Sequence record: PZ019084.1
Source: a phage
Reading direction: 5' to 3' (one strand)
Length of the DNA: 64,000 bases
The notes under the pieces were generated by a model, which was not told where the DNA came from, did no database searches, and worked only from the letters and a program-made list of their open reading frames with translations. Below, in pieces: positions 32,536 to 35,935 of the stretch (position 1 is the stretch's first letter; each line of letters begins with the position of its first letter). Position numbers and translations under genes: made by a program.

Positions 32536-32996
32536 AGAGAGTCTCTTAATAGATTTAACACATCAATAAATTCAGCTTCGGTTAGTATTGTATCATCTTT
32601 TGTTAGACCACTAGCCATGCTGTGCTTCAAAACTTTTCCTTTCGAGGCTTGTAATGCATCGCGAAAGCCCTTGTTTTGGAACGCTGCTTCAAAATATGCA
32701 TTTGTGTATAATTCTTTCCACGCCGGGGAATATCTTGAAAACGGAGTTCCAAGCCAGAAGAGGGTCCCACGGTCCTGAGCTCTAGCATAAGACCTTCCAG
32801 CTTGTTGGGCGGCAAGCCCGGATAACCCAAATATACGACGTTGCTGTTCAACATTTTTCACCTTACATCCTTGGAGGAATCCTTCGAGACCTCCGAATTG
32901 AATACCATCCATGACGAAAGGCCATTGGGCGAAATTACTTAATGCGCATGATGGCCATCTAAAATTGCTTCTTATCTCTAACTCAGACATTTTCAA
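32532..32996 (-). CDS. 30.3: NADAR/YbiA (DUF1768)-like protein, 154 aa
   Basis: SNFAQWPFVMDGIQFGGLEGFLQGCK resembles the E. coli YbiA core SNFAAWPIKVDGKTWPTSEHYFQAQK. A downstream AAxxxGR block is also shared. Confidence 0.7.
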   Translation of the reverse strand: MKMSELEIRSNFRWPSCALSNFAQWPFVMDGIQFGGLEGFLQGCKVKNVEQQRRIFGLSGLAAQQAGRSYARAQDRGTLFWLGTPFSRYSPAWKELYTNAYFEAAFQNKGFRDALQASKGKVLKHSMASGLTKDDTILTEAEFIDVLNLLRDSL

Positions 32997-34147: not shown

Positions 34148-34516
34148 TTATGCAACTTTAATCCAATTATCTAAATTTAATTCACCTTTGGCTTTCATTT
34201 TTTCAATCAAGAGGTCAGCGGTAATACGACCATTTTGATACCACGTAACATCTTCAGAGTAACCAGTTTCTTTATCTTCATAAGTCTCACAGCGAATTTT
34301 ACCAAGAATCAAAGTTTTTAATTCGTATGTATCTCCAGTAAAAAAGTTAGTTAACATTATTTTCCAAGAGAAATCATCAGAAGGACCTTCAGGAGTCATA
34401 CAATCTACGAATTCAAATTGTTCTTTATATAAATGCCACTGAAGTTCTTTAGTTTCGATAGCTTTATAGCCGTCGTGATCTTTACCTTTGATGTATGAGT
34501 TAAGATTGATTTTCAT
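34148..34516 (-). CDS. 30.8: hypothetical protein, 122 aa
   Basis: ORF with a GGAGAA RBS, in synteny with T4. Confidence 0.65.
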   Translation of the reverse strand: MKINLNSYIKGKDHDGYKAIETKELQWHLYKEQFEFVDCMTPEGPSDDFSWKIMLTNFFTGDTYELKTLILGKIRCETYEDKETGYSEDVTWYQNGRITADLLIEKMKAKGELNLDNWIKVA

Positions 34517-34543
34517 TTTATTCTCCTTTGTTTGTGTAAGATA

Positions 34544-34573
34544 ATACTATCACAAAGGAACCATACTGTAAAC
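34544..34573 (-). promoter_or_regulatory. early promoter upstream of 30.8
   Basis: Minus strand reads GTTTAC-N18-TAGTAT. Confidence 0.5.
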
Positions 34574-34595
34574 AACTTTGTGCAATCTTTGGAAA

Positions 34596-34626
34596 ATAAA
34601 AAAAAAAGGACTCCCGAAGGAGTCCT
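34596..34626 (-). terminator. strong rho-independent terminator after the small basic ORF
   Basis: AGGACTCC-cgaa-GGAGTCCT 8-bp stem, followed on the minus strand by a run of about 11 U. Confidence 0.8.
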
Positions 34627-34630
34627 CAAC

Positions 34631-34807
34631 TTATGCTTTCTGCTTACCAAAACGAGAAGCATCATCTCGAAGAACCGCACGTGCTCGACGCATGATCTTC
34701 TCAACAGTTTGATTGATACGAGAGTTCGACCCACGCTTGTAGCCAGCGCGTTTAGAATCACCAACTTTCTTTTCAACTGCTTTCTTTGCTTTAACTTGTT
34801 TTGCCAT
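34631..34807 (-). CDS. 58-aa highly basic protein (30.9 position)
   Basis: MAKQVKAKKAVEKKVGDSKRAGYKRGSNSRINQTVEKIMRRARAVLRDDASRFGKQKA. The track ORF extends to ATG 34849, but that start has no RBS. Start assignment is uncertain. Confidence 0.5.
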   Translation of the reverse strand: MAKQVKAKKAVEKKVGDSKRAGYKRGSNSRINQTVEKIMRRARAVLRDDASRFGKQKA

Positions 34808-34849
34808 TATAAATTCTCTTTTAAATGAAAATGCAGGACTTATTGGCAT

Positions 34850-35203
34850 TGCCTGCGCAAGCCCTCAAGGGGAACATAGGTTTTGGATATTTAACGACAG
34901 GATAACCATAAACCCGTCATCATACCTTATAGCTCTTATCTGTTGCACACCGTTAGCTTAAAGGTTCCGGGTCCGATTTCTCGAGGATAAGATATATACT
35001 GATGGATATATAGGCCTTGAGGCGTACTCCCGATTGGCCATCACCTCGGGGTAGCATGCACTTGCCGCTATAAGAATAACATTCAAGAGGTACACCGTAA
35101 AACTGCCGGGGTCTTAAAACTATAATGATTCGCAAATCATTAATCAGACAGTTCGACGGCTCCTCGTTTTAACTTCACACTAAGGCAGTGACTCTCCAAT
35201 AAA
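34850..35203. other. ORF-free, GC-elevated spacer; candidate structured RNA or leader
   Basis: This is the largest non-coding gap in the window. GC is about 44 percent by my count, against a much more AT-rich surrounding early region. It contains a perfect 8-bp hairpin at 35123-35142. No ORF with an RBS is present on either strand. Confidence 0.3.
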
Positions 35204-35452
35204 TTACTTCAGTGTTACCACAAAGTGACGAACTGCTTTTCGTGCGGCAGAAGCCAAAGGCTTAGCATATTTAAGTTCATCTTTTTCCTGAAGCTCAGCA
35301 GCTAATGCAGTTTGAGCGGGATTCAGATGTTTGAAATAACGCAGGATTTCAAGAGCTTCGGCTTCAACATCAATAGATGCGCCATAGTTTTCGTGACCAT
35401 TATTCCATGCGTTTCGTTGCAGTTCAAGAGCGTGTTGTAATTGTTTAATCAT
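35204..35452 (-). CDS. rIII: RIII lysis-inhibition accessory protein, 82 aa
   Basis: Length and sequence match T4 RIII. Adjacent to gene 31. Confidence 0.88.
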   Translation of the reverse strand: MIKQLQHALELQRNAWNNGHENYGASIDVEAEALEILRYFKHLNPAQTALAAELQEKDELKYAKPLASAARKAVRHFVVTLK

Positions 35453-35591
35453 TTAAAAATTCTCGTTAGAGATTAAAACTCGGTAGTCACGTTCTTCTGA
35501 ATTTCATCTTCTTTCGACAGATCTCTCAGTTGTAGACTACCACGTAGAATTGTTCGGTTAACTTATTATTCCGACACCCAATTCATATTAT

Positions 35592-35599
35592 TATTTATA
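35592..35599 (-). promoter_or_regulatory. late promoter TATAAATA upstream of rIII
   Basis: Exact TATAAATA on the minus strand immediately after the gene 31 stop. Confidence 0.5.
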
Positions 35600-35935
35600 T
35601 CACTTATAAAGACACGGAATAGCTTTATAGTGACAGGTAACAAATTTTTGTTTAATTTCTTTTGGCTGCTTAAGACCCAGAGCTACAAAAGGATGCGGAA
35701 CGTTTCGAATTTGACCAACTGGAAGAGAAGTCAAATCACCAACTTCGCAGAAACCTTCAGGAACATCAGGACCAACAGAGTGAATTACACACAGTTCGGG
35801 AACTTCACCTTGAACACGTTTACCGATAATAAGTCCTGATTCTGTAACTTCTTCATCACCGGCTTGTGCAGGTTCAGAAACTAAAATAACATATTCACCG
35901 ACAGCACGAATTGGTAGCTGTTGTACTTCAGACAT
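35600..35935 (-). CDS. 31: GroES-like co-chaperonin for GroEL, 111 aa
   Basis: Length and sequence match T4 gp31. Confidence 0.93.

Follow-up and report, generated by a model that had tools for sequence, protein, structure and literature searches.

A candidate structured RNA cassette between rIII and 30.9 in T4-type phages

Among the structured RNAs described from T-even phages are rnaC and rnaD of T4 (species 1 and 2), which are ~120-140 nt long, derive from a longer transcript and have no known function (PMC3014915). The same 2010 review recorded that T4 had so far yielded no functionally characterised riboswitch or trans-acting regulatory RNA and that T4 relatives may supply candidates (PMC3014915), and a 2025 review of phage small RNAs names no T4-type example. 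Here we analyse a 64,000-nt stretch of the phage record PZ019084.1 (hereafter the window), a Tequatrovirus (T4-type) segment, and within it the non-coding gap between rIII and gene 30.9. The comparative evidence shows that positions 34926-35074 of the minus strand encode an uncatalogued structured RNA of 149 nt, for which we favor the role of a self-contained module that would bind a putative conserved partner and act on, or after release from, the rIII-30.9 transcript. T-even phages are among the best-studied genomes, and this cassette is an RNA candidate with unusually clean comparative support that is carried by ~400 sequenced phages, many of them from Klebsiella, Enterobacter and E. coli.

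Covariation and fold of the cassette

Because single-sequence folding of the element is not statistically unusual, the case for structure is made comparatively, from an alignment of 23 distinct copies collected from INPHARED, IMG/VR and metagenomes. RNAalifold predicted 43 pairs from these sequences, 23 of them with compensatory changes, and adding the closing helix P1 and a kissing helix between the P4 and P5 loops gave a final structure of 52 pairs. This structure is 95.6% paired, compared with 30.6-41.0% once the partners are slid by 1-3 columns, and both sides have changed in 30 of its pairs, compared with 7-12 after sliding; not one of the five measures of the final structure was reached in 500 shuffles. 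A blind pairwise covariation scan was too noisy owing to the relatedness of the sequences. G.U cells outnumber A.C cells by 57 to 10, and pairing stands at 95.6% for the minus strand as opposed to 91.6% if the plus strand is read as the RNA. The excess of G.U over A.C therefore identifies the RNA as the minus strand, in the same sense as rIII and 30.9. A sequence-only reading of the window had guessed at a structured RNA in the 354-bp segment 34850-35203; compensatory changes proved abundant in the alignment, and the guess holds for a conserved structured RNA on the minus strand, but only for the 149-nt cassette and not for the segment as a whole.

The covariance model and the covariation together outline a four-way junction closed by P1 and built from stems P1-P8 (34926-35074, minus strand, as are all of the parts that follow). 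The 5' strand of P1 (35067-35074) pairs with its 3' strand (34926-34933), with changes on both sides in seven of the eight pairs. The sequence of this helix is wholly different between lineages and always complementary, reading CUUAUAGC/GCUAUAAG in the window, AUAAAC/GUUUAU in Klebsiella phages, GUAUAAUC/GAUUGUAU in IT22 and CAUAUUAC/GUAGUAUG in L033. Arm 1 (35013-35066) comprises P2, an internal loop, P3, P4 and P4a, and 8 of its 12 pairs have changed on both sides. P2 joins GGC (35064-35066) to GCC (35013-35015) and reads GGU/GAC in L023, and it is followed by the conserved internal loop, AAGUGCAU (35056-35063) facing CUCAAG (35016-35021), whose bases are nearly invariant. P3 (35051-35055/35022-35027), which has one bulged C, shifts from GCUAC/GUA(C)GC to GACAC/GUG(C)UC, and P4 (35046-35050/35029-35033) shifts from CCCGA/UCGGG to CUCUA/UAGAG or CGGAU/AUCCG; the short P4a (35044-35045/35036-35037) then leads into the loop L4.

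Arm 2 is the P5 hairpin (34993-35012; stem 35006-35012/34993-34999), the stem of which occurs as UAUAUAU, UAUACAU, UAUUCAU, UACACAU and UGCGUAU, always opposite a complementary 3' strand (99.4% paired). Its loop forms the L5 half of the kissing interaction, in which CCAUCA (35000-35005) pairs with UGAUGG of L4 (35038-35043). This 6-bp helix exists in four covarying versions (UGAUGG/CCAUCA, CGAUGG/CCAUCG, CUAUGG/CCAUAG and CAAUGA/UCAUUG), with all six pairs 100% paired and both-side changes in three of them. Arm 3 (34934-34992) is itself a three-way junction of P6, P7, P8 and the junction segment GCAACA (34941-34946). P6 joins UCUUAUC (34986-34992) to GAUAAGA (34934-34940) and is also found as UUUCAUC/GAUGAGA and UUCUAUC/GAUAGAA. 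P7 (34981-34984/34973-34976), seen as CGA/UCG, UGA/UCA, AGA/UCU and CCA/UGG, is capped by the tetraloop GAAA (34977-34980), a position that is mostly GNRA across the alignment (most sequences have GAAA or GUAA, and a few have UAAA or UAAU). P8 (34968-34972/34947-34952), which changes from CCCG/CGG to CCCA/UGG, closes a conserved 15-nt loop (34953-34967), and the arm 3 motif GCUAAYGGUGNGCAACAGAU is invariant.

Several of these helices had already been noticed as complementarities in the sequence-only reading: 34926-34933 with 35067-35074, 34934-34940 with 34986-34992 and 35029-35033 with 35046-35050 are P1, P6 and P4, each now backed by compensatory changes. A further match, 34863-34870 with 35015-35022, is present in the letters, but its partners change uncompensated in F48, Muldoon and IT22, and the crossing pseudoknot that it was proposed to form with P1 is unsupported; the pseudoknot that does hold up is another one, the L4/L5 kissing loop. 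Two other candidate pairings were rejected, AAGG/CCUU between the internal loop and the P8 loop, which loses pairs without compensation in F48, Muldoon and IT22, and the alternative GCAU/GUGC, which clashes with the covarying P8.

Constraint is concentrated outside the helices, with 38% of unpaired columns varying versus 70% of paired columns. Loops and junctions that vary less than the stems are, to judge from the alignment, the signature of an RNA that makes specific contacts there. Given that the stems drift by compensation and that the junctions and loops are fixed across phages of seven host genera, the element most likely works through its three-dimensional fold. Eight phages were compared in which rIII and gene 31 are 60-72% and 30.9 is 58-87% identical. 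In seven of them the RNA retains 80-95% identity to the window copy; the exception is fHe-Yen9-01, whose RNA is 67% identical.

Distribution and genomic setting

The covariance model of the element (R1) matches the window once, at 34922-35079 on the minus strand (187.5 bits, E = 3.6e-39), and returns one copy per genome region. BLAST hits to the gap came from 1012 of 50,697 phage records, with at least 80% of it covered in only 180. T4, T6 and many others match the gap as two pieces with the middle absent, and this middle part (~34933-35067) is found alone in Klebsiella and Enterobacter phages (92-96% identity) and in Erwinia phages (81%), where its flanks yield no DNA-level alignment. The core is present in 409 phage records, compared with 1117 that have rIII; for Klebsiella phages the respective numbers are 161 and 162, and for Escherichia phages 131 and 561. 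The cassette-bearing phages have hosts in Escherichia, Klebsiella, Enterobacter, Citrobacter, Serratia, Yersinia and Erwinia, the distribution is patchy even within Tequatrovirus, and in every genome examined the cassette lies between rIII and a 30.9 homologue. R1 found no copy in the T4-like loci of Proteus, Acinetobacter, Winklervirus, Gelderlandvirus, Gaprivervirus and Aeromonas-type phages or in T4, and none in 60 fetched bacterial loci or ~80 metagenomic loci that share an 18-nt invariant motif, for which IMG/VR, JGI metagenomes and GTDB genomes were scanned. Matches to this motif outside T4-like contigs fail the hidden Markov model or the covariance model and are attributed to chance.

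Comparison of close relatives places the boundaries of the cassette precisely. T4 lacks exactly this unit and shows a clean junction (..GAATGT/GA/ATGATG..), and T6 and Mosigvirus LF82-33 carry an unrelated ~45-nt insert (ACUAUCAUGCGUCAGAAAAGUGUUAUCUGUGUAAGUCUUGG) at the exact cassette point (~34926/35074), with T4 having neither. An intact gene at this position in relatives, which would have spoken for a decayed reading frame in the window, is thus not what T4 and T6 contain. The insertion point is a hot-spot for small non-coding cassettes, and the 149-nt cassette is a discrete accessory module that is cleanly gained or lost among close relatives. Its order relative to a leader hairpin termed M2 also varies, the cassette lying upstream of M2 in the window, IT22, EnC07, Ent31 and fHe-Yen9-01 and downstream of it in Marfa, F48, SonariX and Muldoon, which argues for an autonomous module and against one half of a fixed switch. 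Two Karamvirus members that infect Enterobacter (L022 and L025) differ clearly in their versions of the RNA, which share 85% and 93% identity with the window copy. The P3 variant of EnC07 (GACAC/GUGCUC) is shared with the Erwinia Roskildevirus copy, which hints at a possible exchange of the cassette between lineages.

Genes of this region lie on the minus strand in the order 31 (35600-35935), rIII (35204-35452), 30.9 and gp30.8, and the region is essentially identical in Escherichia phage vB_EcoM_SA21RB (OL960580.1; 100% identity over 34850-35203). Upstream of the RNA, rIII encodes a lysis-inhibition accessory protein (PHROG 1457) that is 100% identical to T4 rIII. Downstream, the small basic open reading frame (ORF) equivalent to T4 gp30.9 encodes a 58-aa basic helical-hairpin protein (34631-34807) when the T4 RefSeq start, the ATG at 34807, is used, and the non-coding gap then spans 34808-35203 (396 nt). 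Annotation of this start is inconsistent, with 72 aa (34631-34849) in T4T, T6 and the ORF track and 58 aa (MAKQ...) in T4 RefSeq and SA21RB; the 58-aa start is favored because homologues from other genera begin at MAK. The protein is a member of PHROG 1427, a group of unknown function, and searches of Pfam, NCBIfam and the PDB returned no match; its AlphaFold prediction, two helices forming a basic helical hairpin (pLDDT 79.7), is uninformative on function.

Within 34850-35203 we found only short, non-conserved ORFs. Mechanical calling of ATG-initiated ORFs with a minimum length of 40-60 aa bore out the earlier claim that this is the largest non-coding gap of the window, save for apparently larger gaps at 60.4-63.5 kb that are gene 37 running past the window end. 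The elevated GC content that had been estimated by hand is likewise borne out (0.455 over 34900-35199, versus 0.30-0.40 in most flanking windows), but it is not unique to the gap, since 32600-32899 reaches 0.46-0.48.

Outside the cassette, the rest of the gap is a string of smaller leader hairpins common to T4. M2 (GUAUGAUG-stem-loop-GUUAAAUA..CAAAACC; 34879-34925, minus strand) occurs in every T4-like rIII-30.9 leader that was examined, including that of T4, and has two covarying pairs; an AUG stands at its start in every case and opens a mini-ORF of 1-33 codons that is not conserved. Next comes a conserved box, GUUCCCCUUGAGGGCUUGCG, with a small hairpin CCC-UUGA-GGG (34856-34875, minus strand), recognised in the alignments and common to T4. 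Just before the ribosome-binding site (RBS) of 30.9 stands a weak, attenuator-like hairpin, GCAGG...CCUGC followed by AUUUUCAUUU (34823-34856, minus strand), which is also in T4. By eye, its stem differs elsewhere yet stays complementary (GCAGG/CCUGC, GGGAAC/GUUCCC, GGGAGC/GCUCCC and GGCGA/UCGCC), and a pyrimidine- and U-rich tract separates it from the RBS. The terminator scan does not call this hairpin, and hairpin and tract may form an attenuator or a translational operator of 30.9. On the other side of the cassette, in the rIII 3' region, lies an AT-rich hairpin, UAAUGAUU-UGCG-AAUCAUUA on the minus strand (35123-35142), which the sequence-only reading had written as TAATGATT-cgca-AATCATTA and held to be the sole significant feature of the segment. 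The hairpin is exactly as described and is identical in T4 and T6, but it cannot be aligned in other genera and consequently offers no covariation evidence. A different small hairpin, (U/C)GC-UACYWAAGU-GC(A/G), directly precedes the cassette in Klebsiella, Enterobacter and Yersinia phages (L002, L003, L023 and L024) and combines a conserved loop with a U-A to C-G covariation.

The very strong minus-strand terminator that had been placed after 30.9 is confirmed as a nine-pair stem (34606-34627) followed by a T-run (34596-34627 in all), and it closes the rIII-RNA-30.9 unit. Scanning the gap revealed no sigma-70-like promoter and no terminator-like site, and the RNA is therefore probably made within the rIII-to-30.9 transcript. 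A T4-type late promoter motif, TATAAATA, lies upstream of rIII and right after gene 31 (35592-35599, minus strand); SA21RB has a late promoter annotated at the corresponding site, and the motif occurs 18 times in the whole window versus 8.7 expected. This motif is a likely source of late transcripts running through the RNA, such that the rIII-to-30.9 transcript would start there or arise by early read-through and would end at 34606-34627. A dedicated promoter considered upstream of the Klebsiella and Yersinia copies, GCTA-N14/15-(G/T)AAAAT, was rejected, as its start would fall within P1 and be incompatible with the covariation of that helix.

Known classes and candidate modes of action

Searches against catalogued RNAs agree with the earlier impression that the segment matches no tRNA, tmRNA, RNase P, hammerhead or convincing group I intron core elements. 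Rfam 15 (4227 models, including riboswitches, ribozymes, sRNAs, leaders and phage RNAs) gave no match at the gathering score in the 64-kb window. At E <= 10 on 34500-35500 it returned only a chance match to mir-1275 (17 bits, 34859-34935) that touches the 3' edge of the element, and at E <= 1 on four divergent homologous loci it returned nothing over the element. ARAGORN predicted 0 tRNA or tmRNA genes in the window, and R1, run with filters off on the T4 tRNA/rnaC/rnaD region, reached at best 5.6 bits, with no hit over rnaC or rnaD. Full-text searching of the literature found no description of this element. In GenBank records the segment is unannotated or is assigned to hypothetical proteins (e.g. 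Marfa 223 and 224) or to a terminator, and the latter two kinds of call are probably mis-annotations. The rho-independent terminator annotated in SA21RB over P3/P4 (OL960580.1 129057-129095, corresponding to window 35009-35047) is followed by CUCAAGGCC with no U-run, and the terminator scan found no site in 34850-35203.

With respect to mechanism, our preference, which we hold tentatively, is for action in cis on the element's own transcript. The RNA would serve as a receptor for a putative conserved partner, whether a host protein, a machine or a small molecule, and binding of this partner would alter read-through or translation into 30.9 and beyond, in a mode resembling that of a leader RNA, a riboswitch or a processive-antitermination RNA. 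Coding and simple antisense pairing are unlikely modes of action, and a search of the rest of the window for complements of the invariant loops gave no matches beyond those expected by chance.

Several observations weigh against the proposed folded RNA or against its action in cis. Single-sequence folding is insignificant (z = -1.44 for the minus strand and -0.81 for the plus strand), and kinship among the 23 sequences means that independent compensatory events are fewer than the cell counts, with ~4-5 versions per helix. The L4/L5 pairing may be intermolecular, bringing about dimerisation, or intramolecular, as the covariation fits both. The constant location between rIII and 30.9 could merely mirror T4-type synteny, and T4 and T6 keep 30.9 without the cassette, indicating that it is not required for 30.9 expression as such. 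Finally, the missing conserved expression platform after P1 weakens a classical riboswitch view.

Somewhat behind action in cis we place a stable RNA of ~150 nt that would be cut at the AU-rich flanks of P1 and act in trans by sequestering a host factor, for example one involved in defence or RNA metabolism. We regard it as the main alternative, at well below even odds. Such an RNA would accord with a self-contained, P1-closed fold whose 5' and 3' ends lie together, with the accessory, cassette-like and patchy occurrence within Tequatrovirus, with a position relative to neighbouring leader modules that is not fixed, and with an occurrence known only from phages in the collections and loci examined. 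The greater conservation of loops and junctions than of stems, together with a sequence that hardly changes between phages of different host genera, would likewise fit a conserved host target. Set against this are the lack of a promoter or terminator of the cassette's own in the gap, its invariable placement at one syntenic locus in sense orientation, and the lack of likeness to known decoy or host stable RNAs, for which Rfam is empty, 23S rRNA is at chance level and 16S rRNA is marginal. Mimicry of 23S rRNA was rejected on the basis of shared 8-mers (10 observed versus 6.1 expected, p = 0.13) and of a best local alignment that is not significant (82 of 200 shuffles equal it). An 18-nt gapped alignment between 16S rRNA 885-903 (helix-27 region, GGGAGUACGGCCGCAAGG) and window 35025-35042 on the minus strand (GGGAGUAC-GCCUCAAGG) is marginal, with 6 of 200 shuffles doing as well, and we regard it as coincidence.

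A narrower version of action in cis, a metabolite riboswitch in the 30.9 5' leader, strikes us as improbable. On this view a ligand held in the junction would make P1 more stable, and this would in turn switch a terminator or an RBS-sequestering structure further downstream. The architecture is of the aptamer type: P1 varies, several helices meet at a junction whose nucleotides are invariant, two loops make a tertiary contact, and one hairpin is capped mostly by GNRA. A covariation-supported domain with conserved junction nucleotides is what a generic riboswitch aptamer would display. The element also precedes the same gene, 30.9, in every genome examined, and a weak hairpin with a U-rich tract lies ahead of the 30.9 RBS. 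What is missing is a conserved platform adjoining P1: the sequence that follows is M2, the box or other hairpins depending on the lineage, and the distance to the 30.9 start ranges from ~45 to ~160 nt. The downstream hairpins are unchanged in T4, which is without the aptamer, and 30.9 encodes a tiny basic protein without a metabolic link. The 60 bacterial loci yielded no representatives, which is unusual for metabolite riboswitches.

Slightly less probable still is a passive or processing role, either as a nuclease-resistant stabiliser of the rIII mRNA on its 3' side or of the 30.9 mRNA on its 5' side, or as a new self-cleaving ribozyme between the two cistrons. The intercistronic position within one transcription unit and the compact pseudoknotted fold would suit such a role; self-cleaving ribozymes often have a patchy distribution between phage genes, and stable hairpins are well known from the intercistronic regions of T4. 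A mere roadblock, however, needs no ~60 invariant nucleotides concentrated in loops and junctions, no Rfam family, ribozyme classes included, matched the element in the window or in the four divergent loci, and no conserved candidate cleavage site was identified. The self-cleaving classes considered were hammerhead, twister, twister-sister, pistol, hatchet, HDV-like, hairpin, VS and glmS, for which no Rfam model gave a match.

We consider a protein-coding or decayed gene very improbable. Minus-strand ORFs of 27-60 aa do exist, namely a 60-aa ORF from TTG, a 45-aa ORF from GTG and a 27-aa ORF from the AUG in L4, several GenBank records call hypothetical proteins such as those of Marfa, and the 27-aa ORF is intact in closely related copies. 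Elsewhere the latter is cut or frame-shifted, to 13 aa in Muldoon and L035, 14 aa in L009, 21 aa with a different tail in IT22 and 4 aa in L023, and in L033 an unrelated peptide replaces it, such that 6 of the 23 sequences do not keep the frame. Indel lengths are not divisible by three, substitutions are base-pair compensations as opposed to third-codon-position changes, the Shine-Dalgarno-like GAGG lies only 2 nt from an AUG that is itself inside the kissing helix, and relatives without the cassette have no gene there. That the structure arose by chance, or that the segment works at the DNA level (as an origin of replication, a site for packaging or a hot-spot of recombination) and has no RNA function, is equally improbable and largely refuted: folding energy is ordinary on both strands and the site is an indel hot-spot, but covariation is far above the shuffled and slid controls, the asymmetry of G.U versus A.C points to RNA on the transcribed strand, and a loop-loop pseudoknot with four covarying versions has no DNA-level rationale. 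Between them, the coding and chance readings retain very little of our credence.

Returning to a folded RNA with a conserved partner, a bolder possibility, which we rate well below even, is that the cassette represents a new class of phage RNA acting as a fold on or against the host. It might be a decoy or aptamer for a defence or RNA-metabolism factor, a put/EAR-like reprogrammer of RNA polymerase, the first T-even-type riboswitch or a ribozyme of a new kind; in each case it would travel with the phages as a mobile accessory module that happens to be missing from T4. Should the RNA indeed bind a host factor or ligand, an RNA-only accessory module would be added to the T4-type repertoire for host takeover. 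Near-identical phages occur in nature with the cassette (SA21RB and JS98) and without it (T4 and T6), which makes its function directly testable.

Comparison with described RNAs

The cassette shares with the tRNA cloverleaf a four-way junction, a terminal stem of ~7-8 bp and a loop-loop contact between two arms. It differs in that its arms are much longer and branched and that the kissing arms are adjacent, not first and third, and it has no T-loop, anticodon-loop or CCA feature, consistent with the empty ARAGORN run. From rnaC and rnaD it is set apart by locus, since these lie in the tRNA cluster, and by the tRNA-like T-arm in which rnaC ends (as read from its sequence), which is absent from the cassette. 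The phi29 pRNA offers another likeness, being a phage RNA of ~120-170 nt built on a helical junction with an essential, covarying kissing pairing. In pRNA, by contrast, the loop pairing joins separate molecules into a ring on the portal, and the cassette resembles it in neither sequence nor model; we know of no RNA component in T4-type packaging.

HK022 put and Bacillus EAR are cis-acting folded RNAs in operons, upstream of terminators, that act on the transcribing RNA polymerase and need no adjacent platform. A mode of this kind would fit, by position alone, the variable neighbourhood of the cassette and the strong terminator ~300 nt downstream. The folds are not alike, given that put consists of two simple hairpins and EAR adopts a different fold, and there is no similarity in sequence or model (the Rfam searches being empty); T4-type phages have other ways of remodelling RNA polymerase.

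The lysine, purine and cobalamin riboswitch aptamers provide a further comparison. The cassette departs from them in having no Rfam riboswitch match and no conserved platform after P1, in turning up solely in phages among the loci examined and in preceding a gene with no metabolic link. In architecture it resembles them in its P1-closed multi-way junction with side-by-side arms joined by a kissing or loop-loop contact, its internal loop in a long arm and its one mostly GNRA-capped hairpin, as well as in the invariant junction, the drifting stems and the leader or intercistronic position.

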